From UHGV virus genome UHGV-1770993: 13,591 nucleotides of DNA; one strand, given 5' to 3'. This stretch comes from a virus. How positions within the stretch are numbered: the first letter of the stretch is position 1; every line of letters begins with the position of its first letter. The notes below the pieces were generated by a model, which saw only the letters and a program-made list of their open reading frames with translations, was not told the DNA's origin and searched no databases. The position numbers were made by a program, and so were the translations under genes. Below, in pieces: positions 1 to 13,591 of the stretch.

Positions 1-86
1 TGTGAGTCATATTCGCCCTGACTTTCCAGAACCATACGGACTGCCCGTTGACGGACTTCAGGGGAAAAACGAGTATTTTTAGTCAT
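1..86 (-). CDS. IS3-family transposase OrfA, N-terminal fragment (runs off the window)
   Basis: ATG at 86-84 on the minus strand; translation MTKNTRFSPEVRQRAVRMVLESQGEYDSQ matches my recollection of the IS629/IS1203 OrfA N-terminus. Confidence 0.75.
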   Translation of the reverse strand, partial: MTKNTRFSPEVRQRAVRMVLESQGEYDS

Positions 87-140
87 CCTGTTTACCTCTT
101 TCTCAGGAAGTTTAGTCTCCAGGATTCCCGGGGCGGTTCA
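1..140 (-). mobile_element. Left end of an IS3-family insertion sequence (IS629/IS1203-like), reading out of the window
   Basis: Terminal TGAACCGCCCCGGG inverted-repeat end at 140; bases 1-140 are the exact reverse complement of 13452-13591; encodes the OrfA N-terminus MTKNTRFSPEVRQRAVRMVLESQGEYDSQ on the minus strand. Confidence 0.8.
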
Positions 141-171
141 ACCCTTCTTCAGGGCTTAATTTTTAAGAGCG
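141..171 (-). promoter_or_regulatory. nutL: nutL-like N-utilisation site (boxA CGCTCTTA and boxB GCCCTGAAGAAGGGT), directly abutting the IS end
   Basis: Minus strand reads CGCTCTTAAAAATTAAGCCCTGAAGAAGGGT, matching lambda nutL boxA/boxB from memory; the last boxB base is T rather than C at the IS junction. Confidence 0.7.
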
Positions 172-214
172 TCACCTTCATGGTGGTCAGTGCGTCCTGC
201 TGATGGCCTAAAAT

Positions 215-300
215 ATACCTACAGGTAAAACAGCTGTCTATACCTGTAGGTAAATAAAATTGATGTAAGAGTTTACCTGCTTGAATTTTCAGGTAATTAA
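215..300 (-). promoter_or_regulatory. OL/PL-like operator-promoter region with repeated TACC-N4-GGTA repressor sites
   Basis: Palindromic TACCTACAGGTA at 216-227 and TACCTGTAGGTA at 241-252, plus a TTACCTG...CAGGTAA element at 273-297; same motif family as the sites between the repressor and cro. Confidence 0.6.
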
Positions 301-311
301 TTTTTTGGATT

Positions 312-339
312 GATATAAAAAAGCCCGCTTTGCGGGCTG
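312..339 (-). terminator. Rho-independent terminator ending the leftward repressor operon
   Basis: Minus strand reads AGCCCGCAAAGCGGGCTTTTTTATATCA: GC-rich 7-bp stem with 3-nt loop followed by a T-run, just after the stop of the 350-664 gene. Confidence 0.65.
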
Positions 340-349
340 AAAGGAGATG

Positions 350-664
350 TCAGAAGCTATTTGGATTGCTTGGCCATTGCGGCAATTTTGATTCTACTGG
401 GGTGTGTTTGGGTTTGAGTCCGTTTAAGTAGTCAAGACGCTCAATGGCGCATTTATACATAGCAATCTGCTCTGATGACATGTCGTCGTATGACATGCCT
501 TTGAACTTTTTAATTATCGATTCTGCCTCATGTATAAGATGCTTCTTCTTCATGAGTTCAGCTGTATGCTTAGAGCTTACAGGAGATAACTTTGCCCATA
601 TGAAGCAGATGATTACAACAGCGACTACTATGCCGGGTATAAACACTTGCTGCTTTATCCTCAA
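350..664 (-). CDS. Small membrane-anchored protein (104 aa) in the rexAB position downstream of the repressor; function unknown
   Basis: ORF with N-terminal hydrophobic segment VFIPGIVVAVVIICFIWAKL; TTG start overlaps the cI stop (TTGA) with AGGA about 12 nt upstream; followed by the terminator. Confidence 0.55.
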   Translation of the reverse strand: MRIKQQVFIPGIVVAVVIICFIWAKLSPVSSKHTAELMKKKHLIHEAESIIKKFKGMSYDDMSSEQIAMYKCAIERLDYLNGLKPKHTPVESKLPQWPSNPNSF

Positions 665-1347
665 ACTTTTGGCAGATCGTCCTGGTCTACGTACCTGGTG
701 TGTTTCACAATAGCTGAAACAAAATGCATTTTATCAACTTCTTCAACAGGAAGAGTGATTGGGCGGTGATCACTGTTTATGCTACTAAACTGATAATCAC
801 CGTCTCTTGTTTTGTTCATGATCTTTATCATGTTGTGACCGTCTTTGGTCCTTACAAAGACTTCATCACCTGGATGTACTGGCGTATTTGGTTCAATAAC
901 AACATATTCTCCTGACTGAATCCTTGGCCACATGCTGTCACCCTTAACCTTCAGACCGTAAGCATCTTTATCGCCGCTGTAGATGCTTAACCAACCGGAT
1001 CTGAATTCAATCATATCCACTGAGCCATCAACTCCCAAAACGGCTTCACCAATTACCGGAACAAAACCCGCACGAACGTTACCCGCAAACTCAAGATGGT
1101 CTGTAGCTCCAGCTTTACCATCTGCAAGCATGTCCATCCATCCGCGTGGGAGATTAAAAGATTTTTCAATTAGTTCCATCATATCGTCAGCAATGCGTTT
1201 TTTTCCGCTTTTTCCTTCCGGATACAGCATTCTGGAAACGTATGATGGTTCCCTTTCTATTCGACGAGCCAACTCTGAGGCCTTTCCATTACAGAATCGG
1301 TCTCTTATCTCTATCAGCCTTAGTCGTCTTTGTTCGTATTTATCCAT
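661..1347 (-). CDS. cI: cI-type prophage repressor, LexA-like (N-terminal HTH, C-terminal S24 peptidase autocleavage domain)
   Basis: 228-aa ORF divergent from cro; C-terminal GDSM serine motif and downstream lysine typical of S24/LexA-like repressors; flanked by operator arrays on both sides. Confidence 0.85.
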   Translation of the reverse strand: MDKYEQRRLRLIEIRDRFCNGKASELARRIEREPSYVSRMLYPEGKSGKKRIADDMMELIEKSFNLPRGWMDMLADGKAGATDHLEFAGNVRAGFVPVIGEAVLGVDGSVDMIEFRSGWLSIYSGDKDAYGLKVKGDSMWPRIQSGEYVVIEPNTPVHPGDEVFVRTKDGHNMIKIMNKTRDGDYQFSSINSDHRPITLPVEEVDKMHFVSAIVKHTRYVDQDDLPKV

Positions 1348-1364
1348 GATTTAATTCTATCTTT

Positions 1365-1425
1365 GATTACCTGCCGGTAAATAACCTATGGGTATTGATT
1401 TGCTTTTTACCTACAGGTAAACTCA
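1365..1425. promoter_or_regulatory. OR-like operator region with divergent PRM/PR promoters
   Basis: Three TACC-N4-GGTA sites: TTACCTGCCGGTAA 1366-1379, AACCTATGGGTA 1382-1393, TACCTACAGGTA 1408-1419, between the divergent repressor and cro starts. Confidence 0.7.
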
Positions 1426-1455
1426 TCTTATTCAACAACGGGAAGGAGATAGCAA

Positions 1456-1686
1456 ATGGAAGAACTCCGCTTGTATCTGAACTCCCTTTCACTGGAAGAG
1501 CAGAGAGAATTTGCCACCAAGTGCGGAACTTCTATCGGCTATTTGAGGAAAGCACTTAGCCGTAATCATGAATTGGGCGCAGCACTTTGTGTTCTGATTG
1601 AGAAGTTCAGCAATGGTGAAGTGACTCGCAAAGACCTTCATCCGGTTGATTGGGAAAGCATCTGGCCTGAATTAATGGCCGCTTAA
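1456..1686 (+). CDS. cro: Cro-like early regulator (76 aa, HTH)
   Basis: First gene rightward from OR; AGGAG ribosome-binding site at 1444-1448; small HTH-like protein. Confidence 0.7.
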   Translation: MEELRLYLNSLSLEEQREFATKCGTSIGYLRKALSRNHELGAALCVLIEKFSNGEVTRKDLHPVDWESIWPELMAA

Positions 1687-1694
1687 GTTATTAA

Positions 1695-1726
1695 CGCTCT
1701 TACACATCACCGCCCTGAAAAAGGGC
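1695..1726 (+). promoter_or_regulatory. nutR: nutR (boxA CGCTCTTA 1695-1702, boxB GCCCTGAAAAAGGGC 1712-1726)
   Basis: Matches lambda nutR boxA/boxB from memory; boxB is a perfect 5-bp stem hairpin; lies between cro and cII. Confidence 0.8.
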
Positions 1727-1802
1727 ATTACCAGAAACAAATCTCTATGGTTTTGCGTTTCTTTGCGAAGCCAACTCTATCTAATCATTAAGGAAATTAT
1801 CT

Positions 1803-2084
1803 ATGGGTACTATTGCAACTAAAAGCAAGAAAGCGGCTCGCATCGAGTCGGCCTTGCTGAACAAACTGGCACTGATGGGGCAGAAGACATTCGCTCGCGC
1901 GATGGGGGTTCCTGAATACCAGGTAAGCCGATGGAAGAATGGTTTCTTCTCGCAGGTAAGCATGATGCTGGCTGTTCTGGAATACGGAATCGAAGACGAT
2001 GAAATGGCTGAATTGACTAAGCGGCTTGCCGATTACCTGACAAAAGAAAAAGCCCCGAAGAACGGCGAATTCTTCGAGGCCTGA
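1803..2084 (+). CDS. cII: CII transcriptional activator homolog
   Basis: Translation ...[14 protein letters not shown]...SRWK...[17 protein letters not shown] closely resembles lambda CII ([14 protein letters not shown]...SRWK...SMLLAVLEWGVVDDDMA, from memory). Confidence 0.9.
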
Positions 2085-2119
2085 TTGTAGAAAGACTGGA
2101 TCAATCCACAGGAGTCATT

Positions 2120-2266
2120 ATGACAAAACAACTCAGTCCTTACCAGGACAAAATTCACAAACACATACTACGTGATCGCTTCCTGTCCAGCTTCAAGCAG
2201 CCTGGTCGATTCCGGGCTGAGTTGGAAAAAGTGAAGCTGATGCAGAAGGAGAAAGGTCATGAGTAA
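2120..2266 (+). CDS. Small basic protein (48 aa), hypothetical; not in the supplied ORF track
   Basis: ATG 2120 preceded by GGAG at 2111-2114; stop TAA 2264-2266 overlaps the O-like start (ATGAGTAA); [48 protein letters not shown]. Confidence 0.4.
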
Positions 2267-3119
2267 TCTTGCAACCGTAACACATTTAAGGCCTTCACAA
2301 CGGCCTGTGGAGCGTCGTGTGGCAGAAGTTGAAGATGGTTATACCCGTCTTGCAAATGCCCTGTATGAAGAGCTTATCGGCGCAGATTTAACGAAAAATC
2401 AGAGCAAGGTTGCCCACGCCATATGCCGTAAAACATACGGCTACGGTAAAAAGATGGATCGCATCTCTGATAGTCAGTTAGCTCAAATTACCAGGCTGCC
2501 AAGACAGAAGGTAAACAAGGCCAAGAATGAGCTTATCGCGATGAAGGTTATCCTTCGCGAAGGCCAGCAAATCGGGCCTAACAAGAACATCGAGGAATGG
2601 CAAATCGAAGGGTGTCACTACTCTGGTGATAATGTCACTGCATTGGTGACAAAAAGTGTCACCAAAACGGTGACAGCGCTGTCACCAAAACAGGGACACA
2701 CAAAAGAAACTATTACAAAAGAAAAAAGAAATAATAAAAACACTATGTCCGAAAGTGTTCGGACGGAGTGTGAAAAATCACCTGACCGTCACGAAGAAAC
2801 CGACAAGGCATTCGAGGAAATATTCTGGTGTGCAGGCATGCGGAAGGCCGGGAAGAAAAACGCAGCTTCGGCATTCAGAACACAGTTCAGGGAATGGCGT
2901 AAAACTACCAGGGGTACGGCAAGCGAGTTTGCCACGATGCTGGCAGAAGACATCGCATGCAGGAATGGTAAGCAGTTCGGATTCGACAGGTTGTTACCAT
3001 CGAGCTACCTGAACGGTCAGCGCTGGAACGACGAGAAGCCAGAAACTATTCAACCACAATCCAAACCATCATCCGCAATCACCGTATCGAAAACTGGCTA
3101 CGTGTTTTTCGACAGGTGA
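2259..3119 (+). CDS. O: Replication initiator, lambda O-like (N-terminal iteron-binding domain)
   Basis: N-terminal region (...[13 protein letters not shown]...[41 protein letters not shown]...GPNKNIEEW) resembles lambda O from memory; contains internal iterons and an AT-rich tract like ori-lambda. Confidence 0.85.
2620..2745 (+). repeat. Putative replication origin inside the O-like gene: iterons followed by an AT-rich tract
   Basis: Repeated GTGACA/TGTCAC palindromic units (TGTCACTGCATTGGTGACA, GTGTCACCAAAACGGTGACA, GCTGTCACCAAAAC) at about 2627-2691, then the A-rich stretch AAAAGAAACTATTACAAAAGAAAAAAGAAATAATAAAAAC. Confidence 0.65.
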
Positions 3120-3226
3120 ACCATGAAATCAAAAATCAAATCGCTACTGGTCGCTGGTTATAACCACGGCTGGTTAAGTATTTCGTTTGTCGATTTCTGG
3201 TTTAAAAATCTCAATCTGAGGGAATC

Positions 3227-5107
3227 ATGACGCCAAGTGAACTCAGTGACCTGCTTTGGGCGCAGGTTGACAGGGTGGCTCCGCACCTGTTGCCAAACGG
3301 CAAGAAAGAGGGGCATGAGTGGGTTGCCGGTAACGTCAACGGTGACAAGGGAAACAGCCTTAAGGTCAACCTTAGCGGCAAGAAAAAATGGGCTGATTTC
3401 GCTGAGGGAGACGGCGGTGACATGCTTGATTTGTGGATGGCATGTCGTGGAATTAACCTGCATCAGGCTATGCAGGAAGCGAAAGCCTTTCTCGGAATCA
3501 AGGATGACGATCACCATTTCGATGCCAAACGTGAGAAGAAATTCTCCAGACCTGACCGCAAGAAAATCGCCCGCTACGTTACCAGAACAGAATCCCATCT
3601 TGAGTACCTGCAATCGCGTGGCATATCGCCAGAAGTCGTAAAGCGCTACGAGGTTGTCAGCGGCAAGGTGTGGAATGGAGAACGAGAACTTGATGCACTG
3701 GTGCTTCCGTACAAACGCGATGGTGAGTTGTTGCAGGTCAAGCGAATCAGCACTGAGCGACCGGACGGGAAGAAAGTCATTATGGCAGAAGGTGATTGCG
3801 AACCTTGTCTGTTTGGATGGCAGGCTCTGGACGCTGGCGTGAGGGCGGTTGTACTTTGCGAAGGCGAAATTGATTGTATGAGCTATGCGCAATATGGCAT
3901 CTCGGCGTTATCCGTGCCGTTTGGTGGCGGGAAAGGCGCTAAACAGCAGTGGATTGAGTTTGAGTATCACAACCTCGACAGGTTTGAGGAAATATTCATC
4001 TCGATGGACGTTGATGATGTTGGTCGTGAAGCCGCAAGGGAAATCGCAAGCCGACTCGGTGAACATCGTTGCCGTCTTGTTACTCTGCCGTACAAAGACA
4101 TCAACGAATGCCTGATGAACGGTGTTACCGAGGATGAAATCTGGCAGTACATCGGCACGGCATCCTACTTCGATCCTGAAGAACTCTACAGCGCGCGAGA
4201 GTTTTACCAGGACACTATCAACGCTTTCTACGGCAAGCAGCAGTATCTGTTTAATCCACCGTGGGAATCTCTGGCAGATAAATTCCAGTTCCGTGAGGCA
4301 GAGTTGACGCTGGTCAATGGTGTGAACGGTCACGGAAAAACGGAGGTTGTCGGGCATATGGCACTTGAGGCAATGCGTCAGGGTGTGAAGACGTGCATCG
4401 CGTCACTTGAGCTGAAGCCAGGCATTCTCCTTAAGCGACTTACCCGTCAGGCGACGTGCTGCAAGATGCCGCCAGTGCTGGAAATTGACTCTGCATTTAA
4501 ATTTTATGACGAAAGACTTTGGGTGTTTGGCCTGACCGGAACGGCGAAAGCCGACAGGCTGATCGAAATATTCGACTACGCTCGCCGCCGATACGGGATC
4601 CAGTTATTCATCATCGACAGCCTGATGAAATGTGGCATAGGCGACGATGACTATAACGGGCAGAAGGCGTTTGTTGACTCGATTTGCGACTTCAAAAACA
4701 AAACAAACTCCCACGTCATTCTCGTTACTCACTCGCGAAAAGGAGACAGCGAAGAAAAACCAACCGGGAAAATGGACGTAAAAGGCTCTGGAGCGATAAC
4801 AGACCTGACAGACAACCTTTTCATCATCTGGCGTAACAAGGCTCGCGAGAGAGCGTTACAGAGAGTTCAGAGTGGTGAAAAGATGTCAGAGAAGGACGAA
4901 CAGCTACTGGCATCTCCGGCATCTGTTTTGATGCTTGAAAAACAACGTAACGGCGAAGGTTGGGAAGGTGGTGTCCCGTTGTTCCTTGACGAGCAATCGC
5001 ACCAGTTCCTGCAACTTGAATCAGGATCGCCATATAGCTACATCGCCAATATGCCGAAATCGGAATATGACGAGGCGTGGCGACAGGAAAACGTGACGGA
5101 GTATTAA
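3227..5107 (+). CDS. Replicative primase-helicase (Toprim domain fused to a DnaB/RecA-fold SF4 helicase domain)
   Basis: 626-aa ORF; Toprim-like CEGEID and DVDD motifs; Walker A GVNGHGKTE and Walker B LFIIDSLMK in the C-terminal half; occupies the position of lambda P. Confidence 0.8.
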   Translation: MTPSELSDLLWAQVDRVAPHLLPNGKKEGHEWVAGNVNGDKGNSLKVNLSGKKKWADFAEGDGGDMLDLWMACRGINLHQAMQEAKAFLGIKDDDHHFDAKREKKFSRPDRKKIARYVTRTESHLEYLQSRGISPEVVKRYEVVSGKVWNGERELDALVLPYKRDGELLQVKRISTERPDGKKVIMAEGDCEPCLFGWQALDAGVRAVVLCEGEIDCMSYAQYGISALSVPFGGGKGAKQQWIEFEYHNLDRFEEIFISMDVDDVGREAAREIASRLGEHRCRLVTLPYKDINECLMNGVTEDEIWQYIGTASYFDPEELYSAREFYQDTINAFYGKQQYLFNPPWESLADKFQFREAELTLVNGVNGHGKTEVVGHMALEAMRQGVKTCIASLELKPGILLKRLTRQATCCKMPPVLEIDSAFKFYDERLWVFGLTGTAKADRLIEIFDYARRRYGIQLFIIDSLMKCGIGDDDYNGQKAFVDSICDFKNKTNSHVILVTHSRKGDSEEKPTGKMDVKGSGAITDLTDNLFIIWRNKARERALQRVQSGEKMSEKDEQLLASPASVLMLEKQRNGEGWEGGVPLFLDEQSHQFLQLESGSPYSYIANMPKSEYDEAWRQENVTEY

Positions 5108-5191
5108 ATGACCATCTACATCAGTGAGCTTGTAACAGGCCTGCTGGTAATCGCAGGCCTTTTTATTTGGGGGAGAGTAAATCGTGGCTGA
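5108..5191 (+). CDS. Possible 27-aa hydrophobic micropeptide (MTIYISELVTGLLVIAGLFIWGRVNRG)
   Basis: ATG directly abuts the helicase stop (TAAATG); its stop overlaps the GTG start of the next gene; single hydrophobic stretch; too short to be sure. Confidence 0.25.
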   Translation: MTIYISELVTGLLVIAGLFIWGRVNRG

Positions 5192-5390
5192 GTTAATTTT
5201 CTCTGCATTGAGGATTCTCGGTGCTATGTGGATGGTGTCGACGTTCATTGTGGTTGTCGGAAGTTTTGTCCGGTTGGTAGGCGAAGGTAAAGACCTGGTG
5301 GGTGTGCTTTTCGGTAGCATTTTCCTGTGGGTGATTATCGGTGTTATGCCTGTTGTCGTTGCAAAAGTGGCGTGGCGTTTTGTGAGTTGA
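5184..5390 (+). CDS. Small membrane protein with two predicted transmembrane segments (68 aa)
   Basis: GTG start with GGGAGAG ribosome-binding site at 5171-5177; hydrophobic MWMVSTFIVVVGSFV and VLFGSIFLWVIIGVMPVVVA. Confidence 0.5.
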   Translation: MAELIFSALRILGAMWMVSTFIVVVGSFVRLVGEGKDLVGVLFGSIFLWVIIGVMPVVVAKVAWRFVS

Positions 5391-5407
5391 ACTGAGGGTA
5401 AGTACCG

Positions 5408-5764
5408 ATGGACGAATCAAGAAAGAAGTTTGAGGAATACGTTGCCAAAAAATTGAGATTACCATTCGAGATGATAACCGAGGCAAGAAATGGTGATAGG
5501 TACTTCGCATTTTCAAGCATGGATATTCGTCACTCCTTAAATGAGTGGTGGACTTTATGGCAGGCATCGCGAGCAGCTATTGAACTGGATATCGACTGGC
5601 CAGAATCGAATGACGACTTTTGGAAAGATGGTGAAGAAGGTGCTTATGCGATGGGTTATGAGGATGGGCGTGACAAAACGGTAATTGCAGTAATGAAAGC
5701 TATCAGAGCCGCTGGAATTAAAGAGAAGAATTTCGATGAAGCAAACAATATTCCTCCGAACTAA
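5408..5764 (+). CDS. Hypothetical acidic protein (118 aa) in the ren/nin position
   Basis: ORF with GAGGG upstream of the ATG; 29-nt overlap with the ninB start; no family recognised. Confidence 0.55.
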   Translation: MDESRKKFEEYVAKKLRLPFEMITEARNGDRYFAFSSMDIRHSLNEWWTLWQASRAAIELDIDWPESNDDFWKDGEEGAYAMGYEDGRDKTVIAVMKAIRAAGIKEKNFDEANNIPPN

Positions 5765-6146
5765 GCAACAACAGCAAGCCGCAATCAACGCCATCCTCGC
5801 AACACCACTCGATAAAGACAAGCCAGTCACCATCCGCATTACTGACTACAAGCGCAACCTTGACCAGAACGCAAAATTTCACGCGATGCTGGCGGATATC
5901 GCTCGTCAGGTTCAATGGTGCGATAAATGGCTAAAACCAGAACAATGGAAGGTTTTGTTGATCAGCGGTCATGCAGTGGCAACATAACAGGAAGCTGATG
6001 TTTTGCCCGGGCTTGAAGGCGAATACGTCAACATTCGCGAAAGTAGCGCGCAGATGAGTGTGAAGCGTATGGCAAGTCTGATTGAGTACACGACAGCATG
6101 GGCTATTGGTCAGGGTGTCAGATTTACCGACAGGAGGTACGAATGA
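5736..6146 (+). pseudogene. ninB: ninB (Orf-family recombination mediator) interrupted by an in-frame TAA at 5985-5987
   Basis: N-terminal 83 aa resemble lambda NinB (...LDQN.KF.A.L.D..RQV.W...WL); homology continues in the same frame after the TAA ([34 protein letters not shown]...) to the stop at 6144-6146. Confidence 0.7.
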
Positions 6147-6325
6147 GACGACAGCGACGAAGCATCACCGACATCATCTGCGAAAACTGCAAATACCTTC
6201 CAACGAAACGCTCCAGAAATAAACGTAAGCCAATCCCAAAAGAATCTGACGTAAAAACCTTCAATTACACAGCTCACCTGTGGGATATCCGGTGGCTTAG
6301 AGAACGTGCGAGGAAAACAAGGTGA
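6143..6325 (+). CDS. ninE: NinE-like small protein (60 aa)
   Basis: ATG 6143 with GGAGG ribosome-binding site at 6134-6138; [60 protein letters not shown] matches my recollection of lambda NinE. Confidence 0.65.
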
Positions 6326-6492
6326 TTGACCCAAATCGAAGTTACGAACAAGAAAGCGTCGAGCGGGCTTTAACGTGCGCTAACTGCGGTCAGAAGCTGC
6401 ATGTGCTGGAAGTTCACATGTGTGAGCACTGCTGCGCAGAACTGATGAGCGATCCGAATAGCTCAATGTACGAGGAAGAAGACGATGAGTGA
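6322..6492 (+). CDS. ninF: NinF-like small cysteine-rich protein (56 aa); not in the supplied ORF track
   Basis: GTG start overlapping the ninE stop; [56 protein letters not shown] is nearly identical to lambda NinF as I remember it. Confidence 0.65.
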
Positions 6493-6754
6493 TTTCTCTG
6501 AGCTTATTTCCTTCAAAAAAGACAGAGAAGAAATGCGGACTGAATCTGTCTATTACGTTCAACACCGGAATAAACGCTCGGTGCTTGATCAGGAGTTGGT
6601 TATTACCGGAGACCTGGCATTCAGAACATATAAGGCCAGCATGGAAATGAAGGATTTCCCTAAATGTGGTTCTGAAAGAGAAGCCGCGTTAAAGCTGGCT
6701 GAGTGGATGCAGAGAATGGCTGCTGCAATTGAGAATTACTGGAGCGAACCATAA
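6485..6754 (+). CDS. Hypothetical protein (89 aa) in the nin region
   Basis: ORF translationally coupled to its neighbours (start overlaps the ninF stop; its stop overlaps the next start); no family recognised. Confidence 0.5.
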   Translation: MSDFSELISFKKDREEMRTESVYYVQHRNKRSVLDQELVITGDLAFRTYKASMEMKDFPKCGSEREAALKLAEWMQRMAAAIENYWSEP

Positions 6755-7044
6755 TGGCTAACCTACGCAAAGAAGCACGCGGCAGAGAATGCTAGGTACG
6801 TATTTACGGCATATGCAATGGCAATCCTGAAACTACAGTTCTGGCACATTACCGGATGGCTGGAATTTGCGGAACTGGAATGAAGCCTGACGACCTGATC
6901 GGCGCATGGGCTTGTAGTGACTGCCACGCGGAGATCGACCGACGCACCCGGATTCTCGACAACAAAGACGCCAGACTTTACCACCTCGAAGGCGTGATCA
7001 GGACGCAGGCGATACTGCTGAGGGAGGGGAAGATTAAGCCATGA
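6754..7044 (+). pseudogene. ybcO: ybcO-like (DUF1364) gene with an in-frame amber codon at codon 14 (TAG 6793-6795)
   Basis: Reading through the TAG gives MANLRKEARGREC*VRIYGICNGNPETTVLAHYRMAGICGTG...CSDCHAEIDRRT..., collinear with DLP12 YbcO (MADLRKAARGRECQVRIPGVCNGNPETSVLAH..., from memory), where the stop aligns to a Gln. Confidence 0.7.
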
Positions 7045-7403
7045 ACGAATATCAGTTTGTGCTTCCATACCCGCCGTCGGTGAATACCTACTGGCGAAGA
7101 CGGGGAAGCCAATACTACATCAGCGATAAAGGCCAGAAATACCGAAAAGACGTTCAGCAAATCATCCGCCAACTTAAGTTAGACATTTTCACCAAATCAC
7201 GACTCCGCATCAAAGTCATCGTAGACGTTCCGGACTCCCGCCGTCGCGACCTCGACAACATCCTGAAAGGTTTACTCGACTCCCTTATCCACGCCGGATT
7301 TGCGGAAGACGACGAGCAATTCGATGACATTCGCGTAATTCGTGGCGTGAAAGTACCAGGCGGAAGGCTTGGAATAAAAATCACCGAACTGGAGAACGCA
7401 TGA
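7041..7403 (+). CDS. rusA: RusA Holliday-junction resolvase
   Basis: 120-aa ORF with the RusA-like motif PDSRRRDLDNILKGLLDSL and C-terminal GGRLGIKITE; ATGA overlaps with both neighbours. Confidence 0.85.
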   Translation: MNEYQFVLPYPPSVNTYWRRRGSQYYISDKGQKYRKDVQQIIRQLKLDIFTKSRLRIKVIVDVPDSRRRDLDNILKGLLDSLIHAGFAEDDEQFDDIRVIRGVKVPGGRLGIKITELENA

Positions 7404-7588
7404 ACGCCACAATTCAAACGATACCAGAGCTTCTTATCCAGACACGAGGCAATCAGACCGAAGTGGCAAGGATGCTTTCCTGCGCAAGAGGAACAGTGCT
7501 CAAGTACAACCGAGACAGCAAAGGCGAGCGTCACGTAATAGTTAACGGCGTCCTGATGGTCAAACAGGGCAAAAGGGGAAGGCCATGA
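7400..7588 (+). CDS. ninH: NinH-like protein (62 aa)
   Basis: ...TIPELLIQTRGNQTEVARMLSCARGTVLKYNRDSKGERHVIVNGVLMV resembles lambda NinH (...TIPDMLVEAYGNQTEVARRLKCSRGTVRKY..., from memory); its stop overlaps the Q start. Confidence 0.7.
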   Translation: MNATIQTIPELLIQTRGNQTEVARMLSCARGTVLKYNRDSKGERHVIVNGVLMVKQGKRGRP

Positions 7589-8208
7589 GACTCGAAAGCG
7601 CAGCTAAATTTCATTCGCCAAAAAGCCCGATGATGAGCGACTCACCACGGGCTACGGCTTCTGACTCTCTTTCCGGTACTGATGTGATGGCTGCTATGGG
7701 GATGGCGCAATCACAAGCCGGATTCGGAATGGCTGCATTCTGTGGTAAGCACGAACTCAGCCAGAACGACAAACAAAAGGCTATCAACTATCTGATGCAA
7801 TTTGCACACAAGGTATCGGGGAAATACCGTGGCGTTGCAAAGCTTGAAGGAAATACTAAGGCAAAGGTACTGCAAGTGCTCGCAACATTCGCTTATGCGG
7901 ATTATTGCCGTAGTGCCGCGACGCCGGGCGCAAGATGCAGAGATTGCCACGGTACAGGCCGTGCGGTTGATATAGCCAAAACAGAGCAGTGGGGGAGAGT
8001 TGTTGAGAAAGAGTGCGGAAGATGCAAAGGTGTCGGCTATTCAAGAATGCCAGCAAGCGCCGCATATCGCGCTGTAACGATGCTAATCCCAAACCTTACT
8101 CAACCCACCTGGTCACGCACTGTTAAGCCGCTGTATGACGCTCTGGTGGTGCAATGCCACAAAGAAGAGTCAATCGCAGACAACATTTTGAATGCGGTCA
8201 CACGTTAA
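7585..8208 (+). CDS. Q: Late-gene antiterminator Q, lambda type
   Basis: 207-aa translation (MRLESAAKFHSPKSPMMSDSPRATASDSLSG...CRDCHGTGRAVD...) is essentially identical to lambda Q as I remember it; followed by PR'/qut. Confidence 0.92.
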   Translation: MRLESAAKFHSPKSPMMSDSPRATASDSLSGTDVMAAMGMAQSQAGFGMAAFCGKHELSQNDKQKAINYLMQFAHKVSGKYRGVAKLEGNTKAKVLQVLATFAYADYCRSAATPGARCRDCHGTGRAVDIAKTEQWGRVVEKECGRCKGVGYSRMPASAAYRAVTMLIPNLTQPTWSRTVKPLYDALVVQCHKEESIADNILNAVTR

Positions 8209-8250
8209 CAGCATGATTGCCACGGATGGCAACATATTAACGGCATAATA

Positions 8251-8290
8251 TTGACTTTTTGAATAAAGTTGGGTAAATTTGACCCAACGA
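8251..8290 (+). promoter_or_regulatory. Late promoter PR' with overlapping qut site
   Basis: -35 TTGACT at 8251-8256, 17-bp spacer, -10 TAAATT at 8274-8279; the sequence is near-identical to the lambda PR' region from memory. Confidence 0.8.
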
Positions 8291-8480
8291 TGGGTTAATT
8301 CGCTCGTTGTGGTAGTGAGATGAAAAGAGGCGGCGCTTACTACCGATTCCGCCTAGTTGGTCACTTCGACGTATCGTCTGGAACTCCAACCATCGCAGGC
8401 TGAGAGGTCTGCAAAATGCAATCCCGAAACAGTTCGCAGGTAATAGTTAGAGCCTGCACAACGGTTTCGGGATTTTTTAT
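8286..8480 (+). ncRNA. 6S-like PR' leader RNA ending at the tR' intrinsic terminator (hairpin 8422-8471 plus T-run 8473-8479)
   Basis: Region matches the lambda 6S RNA/tR' sequence from memory; CCCGAAAC...GGTTTCGGG stem followed by TTTTTTAT. Confidence 0.7.
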
Positions 8481-8482
8481 TT

Positions 8483-8557
8483 GGGTCAGTCGTATAAAGG
8501 TCATTACGGAAGGCTGTTAACCTTCTTATCGTGGTTCGAGTCCACGCTGTCCCGCCA
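8483..8557 (+). tRNA. tRNA-like gene, anticodon GTT (Asn) by manual folding
   Basis: Cloverleaf by eye: acceptor GGGTCAG/CTGTCCC (6 of 7 pairs), anticodon stem GAAGG/CCTTC with loop CTGTTAA, T-arm CGTGG-TTCGAGT-CCACG, discriminator G and encoded CCA; the D-arm is irregular. Confidence 0.45.
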
Positions 8558-8562
8558 AATAT

Positions 8563-8638
8563 GCTGGTTTAGCTCCAATGGTAGAGCGGTCGCCTTGTAA
8601 GCGAATGGGTAGCGGTTCAAGTCCGTTAACCAGCACCA
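8563..8638 (+). tRNA. tRNA gene, anticodon TGT (Thr) by manual folding, 76 nt with encoded CCA
   Basis: Acceptor GCTGGTT/AACCAGC (7 pairs), D-arm GCTC-CAATGGTA-GAGC, anticodon loop CTTGTAA, T-arm AGCGG-TTCAAGT-CCGTT, discriminator A, CCA. Confidence 0.65.
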
Positions 8639-8880
8639 TAACTGAGCCGTAGCCACTGGCTATCCTGAACTCATCAGTGATAGTTACGCTGCGGCCTTCT
8701 ACACATGACCTTCGTGAAAGCGGGTGGCAAGAGGCTGCGCTAACAACCTCCTGCCGTTTTGCCCGTGCATATCGGTCACGAACAAATCTGATTACTAAAC
8801 ACAGTAGCCTGGATTTGTTCTATCAGTAATAGACCTTATTCCTAATTAAATAGAGCAAATCCCCTTATTGGGGGTAAGAC

Positions 8881-9204
8881 ATGAAGATGCCAGAAAAACA
8901 TGACCTGTTAGCCGCCATTCTCGCGGCAAAGGAACAAGGCATCGGGGCAATCCTTGCGTTTGCAATGGCGTACCTTCGCGGCAGATATAATGGCGGTGCG
9001 TTTACAAAAACAGTAATCGACGCAACGATGTGCGCCATTATCGCCTGGTTCATTCGTGACCTTCTCGACTTCGCCGGACTAAGTAGCAATCTCGCTTATA
9101 TAACGAGCGTGTTCATCGGCTACATCGGTACTGACTCGATTGGTTCGCTTATCAAACGCTTCGCTGCTAAAAAAGCCGGAGTAGAAGATGGTGGAAATCA
9201 ATAA
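8881..9204 (+). CDS. S: Holin/antiholin S (class I holin, dual-start motif MKM)
   Basis: 107-aa translation [41 protein letters not shown]... matches lambda S from memory; dual start codons Met1/Met3 are present. Confidence 0.92.
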
Positions 9205-9664
9205 TCAACGTAAGGCGTTCCTCGATATGCTGGCGTGGTCAGAAGGAACAGATAACGGACGGCAGAAAACCAGAAATCACGGTTATGACGTCATTGTAGG
9301 CGGAGAGCTATTCACTGATTACTCCGATCACCCTCGCAAACTTGTCACGCTAAACCCCAAACTCAAATCAACAGCAGCCGGACGTTACCAGCTTCTTTCC
9401 CGTTGGTGGGATGCCTATCGTAAGCAGCTTGGCCTGAAAGACTTCTCTCCCAAAAGCCAGGACGCTGTTGCGCTGCAGCAGATTAAGGAACGTGGCGCTT
9501 TGCCGATGATTGATCGCGGTGATATCCGTCAGGCTATCGACCGTTGCAGCAACATCTGGGCTTCACTGCCGGGGGCTGGTTATGGTCAGTTCGAGCATAA
9601 GGCTGACAGCCTGATTGCAAAATTCAAAGAGGCTGGCGGAACGGTCAGAGAGATTGAGGTATGA
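9188..9664 (+). CDS. R: Endolysin R (lytic transglycosylase)
   Basis: 158-aa translation [42 protein letters not shown]... is near-identical to lambda R from memory. Confidence 0.92.
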
Positions 9665-10128
9665 GCAGAGTCACCGCGATTATCTCTGCTCTGGTTATCT
9701 GCATCATCGTCTGCCTGTCATGGGCTGTTAATCATTACCGTGATAACGCCATCGCCTACAAAGAACAGCGTGATAAAAAAGTCAGTGAGCTGAAGCAGGC
9801 GGCCGCCACCATTACTGACATGCAGCGACGCCAGCGTGCTGCTGATGCACTCGATGCTAAATACACGAAGGAGTTAGCTGATGCGAAAGCTGAAAATGAT
9901 GCTCTTCGGCGCAAGCTTGATAATGGTGGCAGGGTGCTCGTCAAAGGAAAATGCCCTGTGCCATCCTCAGCCGAAACCTCCGGCGCCTCCGGCATGGGCA
10001 ATGATGCCACCGTCGAACTCTCTCCAGTTGCTGGACGAAACGTTCTCGGTGTCCGGGACGGAATTATCCGCGACCAAACAGCACTGAGAACGCTTCAGGA
10101 ATACATCAGGACGCAATGCCTTCGATGA
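9661..10128 (+). CDS. Rz: Inner-membrane spanin Rz
   Basis: N-terminal [31 protein letters not shown] is identical to lambda Rz from memory; the C-terminal half is diverged but still coiled-coil-like. Confidence 0.85.
9881..10087 (+). CDS. Rz1: Outer-membrane lipoprotein spanin Rz1, embedded in the +1 frame of Rz
   Basis: [21 protein letters not shown]... has a signal peptide with lipobox VAGC and a proline-rich [11 protein letters not shown] segment like lambda Rz1. Confidence 0.75.
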
Positions 10129-10303
10129 TAGCGATAATTTTACTCATCATCCTTCACATCTGGCTCTGTAGACAGGGTGATGATCACTTCTGGAGTGAAT
10201 CCAGATTAAACATCTCATTGCTGATGCTTGATATTGAGCATCTTGCGCGCAGTAAGGGGCTGCGTTGAGATAAGAGCCAGTTCATTACAAATACCAGGAT
10301 TTA

Positions 10304-10328
10304 GCCTCGCATTCGCGGGGCTTTTTAT
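10304..10328 (+). terminator. Rho-independent terminator downstream of the lysis cassette
   Basis: GCCTCGC-ATTC-GCGGGGC hairpin followed by TTTTTAT. Confidence 0.6.
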
Positions 10329-10470
10329 ATCTGAATTTCACAGCGCATCTCACGCGCATATTAACGAGAGCCTTTCAGTAAGCGAGCCTGAGAAATGCCG
10401 TTATAGGTGGCGACCTCTCTCGGGCGGCTTTTCTGTGAGACAGGCTCACTTTCTAAAAGGTAAAGACGCT

Positions 10471-10995
10471 ATGAATAATCATTCAGTTATTCCAGCCTTC
10501 GACTTCCGAGAAATGGTGCAAGCCAAAAACGGAGAGGTCGTTACCACATCCAGAAAAATTGCCAAGTACTTCGGCAAGCGACACGGTGATGTTCTCAGGA
10601 AAATCGAGCAGGTTAAGGCTGATTGCTCGCGTGAGTTTAGCCAACGCAATTTTGCGTCGGCTGATTATATCGATGAGCAGGGCAAGGTTCGCCCGATGTA
10701 CAGCCTGACGAAAGATGGCTGGATCATGGTTGTGATGGGGTTCACCGGGAAAGCTGCTGCGGCAATCAAGGAGAGCTATATCGCAGCATTCAACTGGATG
10801 GCAGAGCAACTGAGCCGCCGCATGGCAATTGGCGAAGAAATGCAGCACCGCTACGCCATCAAAGAAACACGCTCAAAGCTGAAAGGTACGATCGGCAGTC
10901 GGTTAATGAACGAACGGAAGAAAGAGAAGCGTGTCCTGGCTGTCGAGCATGAATACATCTTGCAGGTGACACAGCCTGAACTGCTGATTAATTGA
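10471..10995 (+). CDS. rha: Rha-family phage regulatory protein
   Basis: From ATG 10471: MNNHSVIPAFDFREMVQAKNGEVVTTSRKIAKYFGKRHGDVLRKIEQ... fits the Rha N-terminal domain pattern; the upstream in-frame extension to 10228 spans a terminator hairpin and was rejected. Confidence 0.7.
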   Translation: MNNHSVIPAFDFREMVQAKNGEVVTTSRKIAKYFGKRHGDVLRKIEQVKADCSREFSQRNFASADYIDEQGKVRPMYSLTKDGWIMVVMGFTGKAAAAIKESYIAAFNWMAEQLSRRMAIGEEMQHRYAIKETRSKLKGTIGSRLMNERKKEKRVLAVEHEYILQVTQPELLIN

Positions 10996-11295
10996 AGATG
11001 TCATTACAAAGCCTATCTACGGGTGGGCTTGATAATGAAACCGGAGTTAATTTCTGGTCACTAATTAACGGCAGTACAGCGAAACAACCCAAGCCAGTAA
11101 GTGGGGAAATAACACTGGCAGCCACTGAAAGATGAACCTCCTGCCTTATGGCAAAAAAGATTCTTTGTGGTGGCGGACTGATGGAAAGACATCGGTTATT
11201 GCAGAGACCATTCAATGAGTGGTCTCGACAATGGCTTATACCCTACACGGGATAACTTAACTGATATCCCTTTTAACGGATAAACGGAGCCAACA

Positions 11296-11538
11296 ATGGC
11301 AGAGATTATTCCCATGACTGAAGAACAGAAATTCCAGTTAGAGATTTACAAGCTGGTCATGAACCAGAACGCAGCCGCAGAAGAAGCATTTCAATTCATC
11401 GGCACTGACGAGTTGAAGCTTGAGCTATTCAAAATTCACTTCCAGTCAGGCGGCGCTAATTCAGATATCACTACCCGCACTATCGAAGCGGTGCGTAAAT
11501 CGAAGGAAGCGTTATACCTGTTCACCACCGGAGCATAA
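11296..11538 (+). CDS. Hypothetical protein (80 aa) immediately upstream of the terminase genes
   Basis: ORF with GGAG upstream (11283-11286); stop 3 nt before the terS start; no family recognised. Confidence 0.5.
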   Translation: MAEIIPMTEEQKFQLEIYKLVMNQNAAAEEAFQFIGTDELKLELFKIHFQSGGANSDITTRTIEAVRKSKEALYLFTTGA

Positions 11539-11540
11539 AC

Positions 11541-11981
11541 ATGGCGCGCCCAACAAAGTATCAAGAGGCGTATGCCGAACAGGCACGCAAACTGTGCTTG
11601 CTGGGCTACACCGATGCAGAGCTTGCTGATTTCTTCGAAGTCAGTGAGTCAACTATTAACAAGTGGAAGCTTGATTATCCTGAGTTTTCGGAGTCCATAA
11701 AAAAGGGTAAGGCCGTCGCTGATGCAGAAGTTAGTGACCGTCTTTATCAACGCGCTATGGGCTTCGTGGCTCCAGACATCGATATTCGTGTTATTGAAAA
11801 CAGAATTGTCGAAACTCCGCTTGAGAAGTATTACCCGCCTGATACAACTGCCGCCATCTTCTGGCTTAAGAACCGACAGAAGGATAAATGGCGCGACAAG
11901 GTTGATCACGAGCTAACAGGCAAAGACGGCGGCGCAATTCAGATTGAAACATCACCGATGAGCACTCTGTTCGGAAAATGA
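11541..11981 (+). CDS. terS: Terminase small subunit (HTH-containing)
   Basis: 146-aa ORF immediately upstream of and overlapping (ATGA) the large-terminase gene; N-terminal HTH-like segment LGYTDAELADFFEVSESTINKWK. Confidence 0.75.
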   Translation: MARPTKYQEAYAEQARKLCLLGYTDAELADFFEVSESTINKWKLDYPEFSESIKKGKAVADAEVSDRLYQRAMGFVAPDIDIRVIENRIVETPLEKYYPPDTTAAIFWLKNRQKDKWRDKVDHELTGKDGGAIQIETSPMSTLFGK

Positions 11982-13393
11982 CCTCGATTAATCCTATCTT
12001 TGAACCGTTCATTGAGGCGCATCGCTACAAAGTCGCCAAAGGCGGTCGAGGTAGCGGTAAATCATGGGCAATTGCGAGGCTGCTTGTTGAAGCGGCGCGT
12101 CGTCAGCCAGTGCGTATTCTTTGCGCTCGTGAACTGCAAAACAGTATCAGCGATTCGGTAATCCGGCTGCTTGAAGACACCATCGAGCGTGAAGGATATT
12201 CGGCTGAGTTTGAAATTCAGCGTTCAATGATTCGTCATCTCGGAACGAATGCTGAATTCATGTTCTACGGCATCAAAAACAACCCGACGAAGATTAAATC
12301 GCTCGAAGGTATTGATATCTGCTGGGTGGAAGAAGCGGAAGCGGTAACGAAGGAATCATGGGATATCCTGATACCAACCATCCGTAAGCCGTTCTCTGAA
12401 ATATGGGTGAGCTTTAACCCGAAGAACATACTCGACGATACCTATCAGCGATTCGTCGTAAATCCTCCTGATGATATTTGCCTGTTGACGGTGAACTACA
12501 CCGACAACCCGCACTTTCCTGAAGTTCTCCGTCTGGAGATGGAAGAGTGTAAACGCAGAAATCCGACACTGTATCGTCACATCTGGCTTGGTGAGCCAGT
12601 GAGCGCAAGTGATATGGCAATTATCAAACGTGAATGGCTTGAAGCCGCAACCGATGCGCACAAGAAACTCGGATGGAAAGCGAAAGGCGCTGTTGTCTCT
12701 GCGCATGACCCATCAGATACAGGGCCAGATGCTAAAGGTTATGCATCGCGTCACGGTTCGGTAGTTAAGCGCATTGCCGAAGGTCTGCTGATGGACATCA
12801 ACGAGGGTGCTGACTGGGCTACTTCGCTGGCGATTGAAGACGGCGCTGACCATTACCTGTGGGATGGTGATGGTGTTGGTGCCGGGCTACGCAGACAGAC
12901 AACGGAAGCGTTTTCCGGCAAGAAAATCACCGCCACGATGTTCAAGGGCAGCGAATCGCCATTCGATGAAGATGCACCGTATCAAGCCGGAGCATGGGCT
13001 GATGAAGTCGTACAGGGTGACAACGTTCGCACTATTGGCGATGTGTTCCGCAATAAGCGAGCACAATTCTATTACGCGCTGGCTGACAGGCTGTATCTGA
13101 CATATCGGGCGGTTGTCTACGGTGAGTATGCAGACCCCGACGACATGCTGAGCTTCGACAAAGAAGCGATAGGCGAGAAGATGCTGGAGAAGCTGTTTGC
13201 AGAATTGACGCAGATTCAGCGCAAATTCAATAACAACGGGAAGCTGGAGCTAATGACTAAGGTCGAAATGAAGCAGAAGCTCGGTATTCCATCTCCTAAC
13301 CTGGCTGATGCGCTGATGATGTGTATGCATTGCCCGGAGTCGGCTGCGCAACCCGACTATTCCAGTTACTCAATTCCTTGTGGTGTAGGTTGA
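11978..13393 (+). CDS. terL: Terminase large subunit, PBSX-family (pac-type) ATPase/nuclease
   Basis: 471-aa ORF with Walker A KGGRGSGKSWA, Walker B-like ICWVEEAEA, and C-terminal acidic nuclease-like residues. Confidence 0.88.
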   Translation: MTSINPIFEPFIEAHRYKVAKGGRGSGKSWAIARLLVEAARRQPVRILCARELQNSISDSVIRLLEDTIEREGYSAEFEIQRSMIRHLGTNAEFMFYGIKNNPTKIKSLEGIDICWVEEAEAVTKESWDILIPTIRKPFSEIWVSFNPKNILDDTYQRFVVNPPDDICLLTVNYTDNPHFPEVLRLEMEECKRRNPTLYRHIWLGEPVSASDMAIIKREWLEAATDAHKKLGWKAKGAVVSAHDPSDTGPDAKGYASRHGSVVKRIAEGLLMDINEGADWATSLAIEDGADHYLWDGDGVGAGLRRQTTEAFSGKKITATMFKGSESPFDEDAPYQAGAWADEVVQGDNVRTIGDVFRNKRAQFYYALADRLYLTYRAVVYGEYADPDDMLSFDKEAIGEKMLEKLFAELTQIQRKFNNNGKLELMTKVEMKQKLGIPSPNLADALMMCMHCPESAAQPDYSSYSIPCGVG

Positions 13394-13395
13394 TA

Positions 13396-13451
13396 TGGCA
13401 GAAAAAAAGATGACTGACTGGCATCGCAAGGTGCTGTGCAACTTTGATAAT
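13396..13451 (+). pseudogene. First 18 codons of the gene after terL (presumably portal), truncated by IS insertion
   Basis: ATG 13396 three nt after the terL stop, MAEKKMTDWHRKVLCNFDN, then the IS end begins at 13452. Confidence 0.35.
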
Positions 13452-13591
13452 TGAACCGCCCCGGGAATCCTGGAGACTAAACTTCCTGAGAAAGAGGTAA
13501 ACAGGATGACTAAAAATACTCGTTTTTCCCCTGAAGTCCGTCAACGGGCAGTCCGTATGGTTCTGGAAAGTCAGGGCGAATATGACTCACA
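13452..13591 (+). mobile_element. Left end of an IS3-family insertion sequence (IS629/IS1203-like), reading out of the window
   Basis: TGAACCGCCCCGGGAATCCTGGAGACTAAAC... terminal repeat; exact reverse complement of 1-140; OrfA start at 13506. Confidence 0.8.
13506..13591 (+). CDS. IS3-family transposase OrfA, N-terminal fragment (runs off the window)
   Basis: GGT/AGG ribosome-binding site then ATG 13506; MTKNTRFSPEVRQRAVRMVLESQGEYDSQ. Confidence 0.75.
   Translation, partial: MTKNTRFSPEVRQRAVRMVLESQGEYDS

Follow-up and report, generated by a model that had tools for sequence, protein, structure and literature searches.

IS629 adjoining the nutL site of a P22-like Escherichia coli prophage in a short-read contig

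The viral sequence UHGV-1770993 (13,591 bp, called the window below, over its whole length) carries the terminus of an insertion sequence (IS) directly next to a nutL site of the lambda type, and raises the question of whether this IS has uncoupled the leftward promoter PL from the antitermination gene N. We examined the junction itself, the prophage around it and the reason why N is not found in the window.

The nutL site and its junction with IS629

On the minus strand, the order of elements at the junction is ...ATCAGCAGGACGCACTGACCACCATGAAGGTGA-CGCTCTTA-AAAATTAA-GCCCTGAAGAAGGGT-TGAACCGCCCCGGGAATCC.... Motif scanning and alignment to lambda placed a boxA (CGCTCTTA) at 171-164, followed by a spacer of 8 nt (AAAATTAA, 163-156) that is the same as in reference lambda. 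The same approaches together with folding placed a boxB of the full 15 nt (GCCCTGAAGAAGGGT) at 155-141, with a stem closed by a G-U pair in comparison with the G-C pair of lambda. The inverted repeat TGAACCGCCCCGGG of an IS3-family element begins at base 140, directly 3' of the end of boxB (141), so that the IS terminus adjoins boxB as had been noted earlier. From the start of the PL leader to boxB, the sequence is that of reference lambda (NC_001416) save for the last base, which is T here and C in lambda, and in the alignment the homology to lambda breaks off precisely at 141/140, the IS terminus. The boxB pattern occurs twice in the 13.6-kb window (nutL downstream of PL and nutR downstream of cro) against 0.00 occurrences expected by chance; boxA likewise has two occurrences, both preceding a boxB. 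The junction is confirmed as genuine and not a chance match.

The predicted fold of GCCCTGAAGAAGGGT is (((((.....))))), i.e. a stem of 5 bp with a GAAGA pentaloop, at −6.5 kcal/mol compared to −7.9 kcal/mol for the lambda boxB. The hairpin persists in the predicted fold of the chimeric leader::IS629 RNA, in which the IS terminus adds one A-U pair. In its boxA, spacer, boxB and place after PL, the site has the sequence and structure of a lambda-type nutL; the cognate N of such a site has no homologue in the window. The IS had been described as inserted at the boxB hairpin, which needs correction: it does not lie inside the hairpin but immediately 3' of a complete 15-nt boxB that still folds. 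Comparison with near-identical prophages free of the IS (PA45B, SCU-123) shows that nutL is whole and not cut, the IS having been placed ahead of the N leader.

The 5' part of the PL leader (172-204, minus strand) was recognized by its identity to the lambda pL leader (NC_001416), with a transcript start at base 204 (ATCAGCAGG...), a position that we take over from established knowledge of lambda pL. The promoter scan gave PL at 212-240 on the minus strand (−35 TAGACA at 240-235, 17 bp, −10 TATATT at 217-212), which is the putative PL in the annotation of phage mEp043. These hexamers face the IS, and the earlier claim that the PL transcript runs into it holds. This transcript would consist of a 64-nt leader with an intact nutL, followed by the IS629 transposase genes in the sense direction.

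The IS can be assigned to IS629 by its inverted repeat, which starts with TG, and by sequence identity. Both ends of the window match, at 100% identity, the initial 140 bp of a complete element of 1,310 bp in E. coli 4/2-1: the left end of copy A at 1-140 (minus strand, with the IRL terminus TGAACCGCCCCGGG from base 140) and the left end of copy B, inverted with respect to copy A, at 13452-13591 (plus strand, same 140 bp). The window holds 140 bp of each copy, and the complete structure is seen only in the reference copy, which contains orfA and orfB with a programmed frameshift, has the termini TGAACCGCCCCGGG...CCCGGGGCGGTTCA and shows a duplication of 3 bp (CTG). This reference element shares 99.9% identity with copies that Stx phage records annotate as 'IS3 family IS629'; IS629 is carried by 174 phage records, and the NCBI label for relatives of the element is IS1203 family. 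The orfA ATG of copy A is at 86-84 on the minus strand, in the same direction as PL, and its open reading frame leaves the contig. On the IS629 sense strand no convincing intrinsic terminator was detected, the lone weak candidate being within chance expectation.

The empty site is given by the prophage of strain PA45B, which is 100% identical to window 141-1400 (1,260 bp). Without the IS, PA45B reads ...GAAGAAGGGT|AGCATTCAAAGCAG..., i.e. GGGT|AGCATTC, and a lambda-type N starts 199 bp after its boxB. The terminal T of boxB is not a product of the insertion but native to this prophage lineage, since IS-free PA45B has T at this position too. The same T is common to at least 16 complete genomes that retain N, while mEp043 and others have C. 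Among the complete E. coli genomes with this immunity region (n = 52), the nutL::IS629 junction was present in 0 of 52.

Control region and lesions of the prophage

The colinearity with the P22-like prophage of PA45B, located there between intS and torI/dsdC, extends over window 141-13451 (13,311 bp) with only two substitutions. The gene order cI-cro-cII-O-replication-nin-Q-lysis-terminase together with the lambda-type sites, established from gene calls, Pfam families and this colinearity, identifies the window as part of a lambdoid (P22-like) prophage. In sequence, it is essentially identical to the prophages of PA45B and SCU-123.

Around PL, operator-like palindromes of OL are found at 216-227 (TACCTACAGGTA), 241-252 (TACCTGTAGGTA) and 273-296 (TTACCTGCTTGAATTTTCAGGTAA), a region (216-296) that is the same in PA45B, and a strong intrinsic terminator at 322-338 (minus strand) ends the cI operon upstream of PL. 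The cI repressor gene (661-1347, minus strand) encodes an intact protein of 228 aa of the S24 peptidase family. It is followed by the OR palindromes (1368-1379 and 1408-1419, spanning 1368-1419), by an intact cro-like repressor gene (1456-1686, plus strand) and by an intact nutR (1695-1726, plus strand), in which motif scans located boxA CGCTCTTA at 1695-1702 and boxB GCCCTGAAAAAGGGC at 1712-1726. The intrinsic terminator tR2 (5137-5168, plus strand), between the replication genes and nin/Q, is base for base the hairpin of the lambda ren-ninB interval. The lambda-type Q antiterminator gene (7585-8208, plus strand) is of full length and matched the lambda Q structures 7UBM and 4MO1 over residues 1-207 with E = 7e-138. 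The interval from Q to the holin gene contains, like that of PA45B, genes for tRNA-Asn(GTT) (8483-8557) and tRNA-Thr(TGT) (8563-8638), both on the plus strand. The genes cII and O, the primase-helicase gene, the lysis genes and those of both terminase subunits are also intact. The identity to PA45B, the motif scans and the Q match thus agree with the earlier statement that the operators, cI, nutR and a lambda-type Q are preserved. Considering that tR2 is conserved upstream of nin/Q, late expression should need N.

Downstream of cI, at the position of rex in lambda, an ORF of 98 aa (350-646, minus strand) belongs to phrog_10450 (no known function; E = 3.5e-55) and corresponds to a hypothetical protein in mEp043. 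The N-terminus of its product looks hydrophobic. The ORF could be an exclusion gene expressed in the lysogen.

The two substitutions that separate the 13.3 kb from PA45B (5985 and 6793) are both nonsense changes. At base 5985, K84 of ninB (5736-6146, plus strand) is changed from AAA to TAA, as determined by comparison with PA45B, which makes the gene a pseudogene; this stop allele is private to the lineage and absent from all complete E. coli genomes searched. At base 6793, Q14 of a DUF1364/YbcO-like gene (6754-7044, plus strand) is changed from CAG to TAG in the same comparison. The latter stop is common to about 10 complete genomes, including SCU-123, whose prophage thus has one of the two differences of the window from PA45B and where the gene is annotated from a downstream start; it is a polymorphism of the lineage. 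A reading of the two nonsense changes as a two-out-of-two signal was rejected, because only ninB K84* is private. The ninB stop is the sole base that sets the window apart from its closest complete genomes.

The third lesion is at the other IS629 copy. From the reading of the junction and from the relatives, the portal gene is reduced to a stub at 13395-13454 (plus strand), with 19 codons followed by a TGA that is contributed by the IS629 terminus, and the late operon reads in sense into orfA of copy B. By its sequence, the portal truncation alone should make virion formation impossible, whatever the state of N. Because the portal truncation and the ninB nonsense change would leave no virions regardless of N, a mitomycin C induction test would not isolate the effect of the insertion at nutL. 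The element appears to be a cI-immune, non-producing and decaying prophage with its immunity functions intact.

The portal junction also bears on whether IS629 could have recognized the boxB hairpin or its sequence. The nutL junction does fall exactly at the 3' base of the hairpin, and a T directly precedes the TG terminus at both junctions. However, the portal target has no comparable hairpin and no evident motif in common with the nutL target, and a common T has a 1 in 4 chance. In addition, none of 5,426 complete E. coli genomes has an IS629 at the 3' edge of the nutL boxB. A survey that covered 47 IS629 sites in O157 genomes showed no target hot spot or sequence specificity (PMC3271280). 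We consider an insertion directed by boxB very improbable. In the O157 genomes, 62% of the IS629 copies are located in prophages (PMC3271280).

Two further contigs from other samples, assembled with SPAdes, have the same ninB stop (L018, ERZ1743281 NODE_164; L019, ERZ857894 NODE_577). Both contigs break in the operators between cI and cro, at window 1349 and 1379, no more than 30 bp apart, which suggests a repeated or variable cI-PL segment in these samples.

The contig boundary and the place of N

The earlier note had reported that the N gene is absent, and no N homologue was indeed detected anywhere in the window. This absence, though, is a contig boundary at a repeat and not a deletion. By an exact look-up of the truncated NinB protein, the window could be matched to an entire MEGAHIT contig, k141_588 (13,591 bp), of ENA assembly ERZ27234353, to which it is byte-identical. 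The 'k141' in the contig name stands for the final k-mer size of MEGAHIT. The left end of IS629 is present at both contig ends with exactly k−1 = 140 bp each. The contig stops at IS629 because this element is repeated, and a unitig that enters a repeat retains k−1 = 140 bases, as seen at both ends. The case matters mainly as a caution: where a short-read contig ends in a repeat, the lack of a gene at that edge is no evidence of its deletion.

The origin of the contig from a short-read, metagenome-style assembly, and its end in a repeat, could also speak for phage-IS joins that are chimeric and exist in no real genome. Against this, both joins are located precisely where the IS629 inverted repeat begins, which is expected of transposition and not of a chimera; the 140 IS bases stand on an unbranched unitig at k = 141; and the contig is recorded in 3 samples. 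We hold such an artefact to be extremely improbable, and both assembly chimerism and, for the reasons given above, hairpin-directed targeting were rejected. The lack of a branch at 140/141 points to the IS-joined allele as the only one with good coverage in that sample. Both IS junctions are probably on one molecule, as the unbranched unitig suggests, although assemblers can drop minor alleles.

We consider it quite likely that the window is a short-read contig of a P22-like E. coli prophage with lambda-type N/nut and Q regulation, which two copies of IS629 entered in ordinary transposition events, with copy A landing directly after boxB, ahead of the N leader; that this prophage is a decaying non-producer; and that N is absent from the window because the assembly stopped at the repeat. 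Either N would now stand at least 1.31 kb further from PL, or a later rearrangement mediated by the IS would have removed or relocated it. The proposal that PL is uncoupled from N is thus real in some form, while the absence of N that was offered as its basis is an assembly boundary. As this absence is that of a contig end, the loss of delayed-early antitermination is plausible only.

For the state of N, two readings have to be weighed. The left arm from N onward may have been deleted or moved by an IS629-associated rearrangement, by which delayed-early antitermination would be abolished in cis. Only 21 of 47 O157 IS629 copies keep a matching duplication of 3-4 bp, IS629 being often associated with rearrangements (PMC3271280), so that secondary rearrangements are common. 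The inverted copies 13.3 kb apart are, moreover, a substrate for inversion, the prophage has other signs of decay (the nonsense changes and the portal stub), and one prophage remnant shares this cI but lacks N. Nevertheless, the sole evidence offered for the loss of N is the contig end at a repeat, and both junctions are exact at the IS terminus with unchanged flanks, which simple insertions predict as well. A loss of N in this manner has, in our estimate, a chance that comes close to even at best.

The other reading is that of two simple insertions, with N intact behind a full 1,310-bp IS629 and a GGT duplication. Read-through from PL would then give lower or later N, which would bootstrap its own expression via nutL, and antitermination would be weakened and not lost. 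The precision of both junctions at the terminus is in favor of this, as are the 3-bp duplication of the reference copy, the lack of a convincing intrinsic terminator on the sense strand of IS629 and a nutL that is whole and folds. We also counted for it the classical genetics of lambda, in which the polarity of IS insertions is suppressed by N-modified polymerase. In the O157 genomes, about 45% of the IS629 copies retain the duplication (PMC3271280). On the other side, the earliest N transcripts could still be halted by Rho-dependent polarity where orfB is untranslated, and the reciprocal junction was found in no searched collection, an argument that is weak since the window's own junction is absent there too. 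We give two simple insertions that leave N in place slightly less than an even chance.

These searches covered several collections. The exact nutL::IS629 junction was not found in the GTDB representative genomes or in IMG/VR. A degenerate pattern, which stands for the observed junction or the reciprocal one (IS629 end, a duplication of 0-5 bp, N leader) and which matches the window itself, had no match in JGI metagenomes, GTDB genomes and IMG/VR, and the portal junction patterns had no match in the same scanned collections. The predicted reciprocal junctions are ...CCCGGGGCGGTTCA + GGT + AGCATTCAAAGCAGAAGG at nutL and ...GGTTCA + AAT + GCCTGGTCAGC at the portal gene; synthetic queries made from reciprocal junctions gave no place that covered more than 58% of the query in the 5,426 complete E. 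coli genomes. The other assemblies with the private ninB stop (L018-L020) end short of both junctions. An IS3-family element in the portal gene of strain 98224 was rejected as the same insertion, its position being different.

Whichever of the two readings applies, the expected effects can be stated by analogy with lambda. Without N, RNA polymerase would be expected to stop at tR2, and Q and the late genes would remain silent. With N behind the IS, its expression from PL would be cut by polarity across a poorly translated orfB (about 0.9 kb), probably subject to Rho. The cut could be partial, given that IS629 offers no convincing intrinsic terminator and that N, once produced, would act at the intact nutL upstream. 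Such N could relieve the polarity via nutL, and the phenotype would be leaky or delayed and not null. On three points we argue from the known behavior of lambda: how polar IS629 is in this orientation, whether this phage depends on N, and how a boxB closed by G-U functions.

The two inverted copies, whose left ends face inward at 140 and 13452 and bracket 13.3 kb, are similar to a composite transposon only in their form. At both copies, transcription from the phage runs into the transposase gene in the sense direction (from PL leftward and from the late operon rightward), an arrangement with a 1 in 4 chance, and this sense entry might link transposase expression to induction. One could extend this to a model in which each inverted copy is entered in sense by an antiterminated operon (PL-nutL and the late operon under Q). 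A burst of IS629 transposase would then follow prophage induction or the supply of N in trans from a further prophage of the lambda type, and the 13.3-kb block of immunity, replication, lysis and terminase genes might act as an invertible or composite-transposon-like unit. We regard this model as very improbable.

Relation to known prophages and IS insertions

The case is one of ordinary IS-driven prophage decay. The erosion of lambdoid prophages by IS629 is already well documented, and only the site is new. The element itself is the IS629 (IS3 family; isoform IS1203) of O157:H7 and Stx prophages, whereas its host here is a P22-like prophage of the PA45B/SCU-123 type and not an Stx phage. The relatives PA45B, SCU-123 and mEp043, the last with an immunity region 99.4% identical to that of the window, have an uninterrupted nutL-N segment, a whole portal gene and a whole ninB, in contrast to the window, which has none of these.

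The immunity region (cI, operators and nut sites) outlasts the erosion by IS629, and remnants of this kind can confer superinfection immunity and recombine with incoming phages. Another remnant prophage (L009; GCA_900448675.1, UGAU01000003.1, 3799-11600) has the same cI, 98-aa ORF and nutL and has no N. In this remnant, chromosomal genes follow soon after the N leader, and the nin-Q region is replaced by an IS3-family element. The immunity module thus survives in independently degraded prophages. This remnant was rejected as the same event, since its deletion endpoint is further downstream and not at boxB.

In comparison with the PL-nutL-N arrangement of lambda, the leader, nutR, tR2 and Q of the window are of the lambda type and its relatives encode a lambda N. 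The differences are that boxB ends in T, with a G-U closing pair, and that the N leader and N are replaced by IS629 from base 140. The repressor and operators are moreover of the mEp043 type, and the structural genes are P22-like.

A parallel is found in the classical polar IS insertions in the early operons of lambda, the polarity of which is suppressed by N. There too, an antiterminated operon has the IS inserted beyond its nut site, and N-modified polymerase is expected to read through it. Here, however, N itself would lie beyond the IS, and the first synthesis of N must cross the element without antitermination. Should N still be located behind the IS, this locus would offer a natural test, of modest specialist interest, of the amount of unassisted read-through across an IS that suffices to start N-dependent antitermination.
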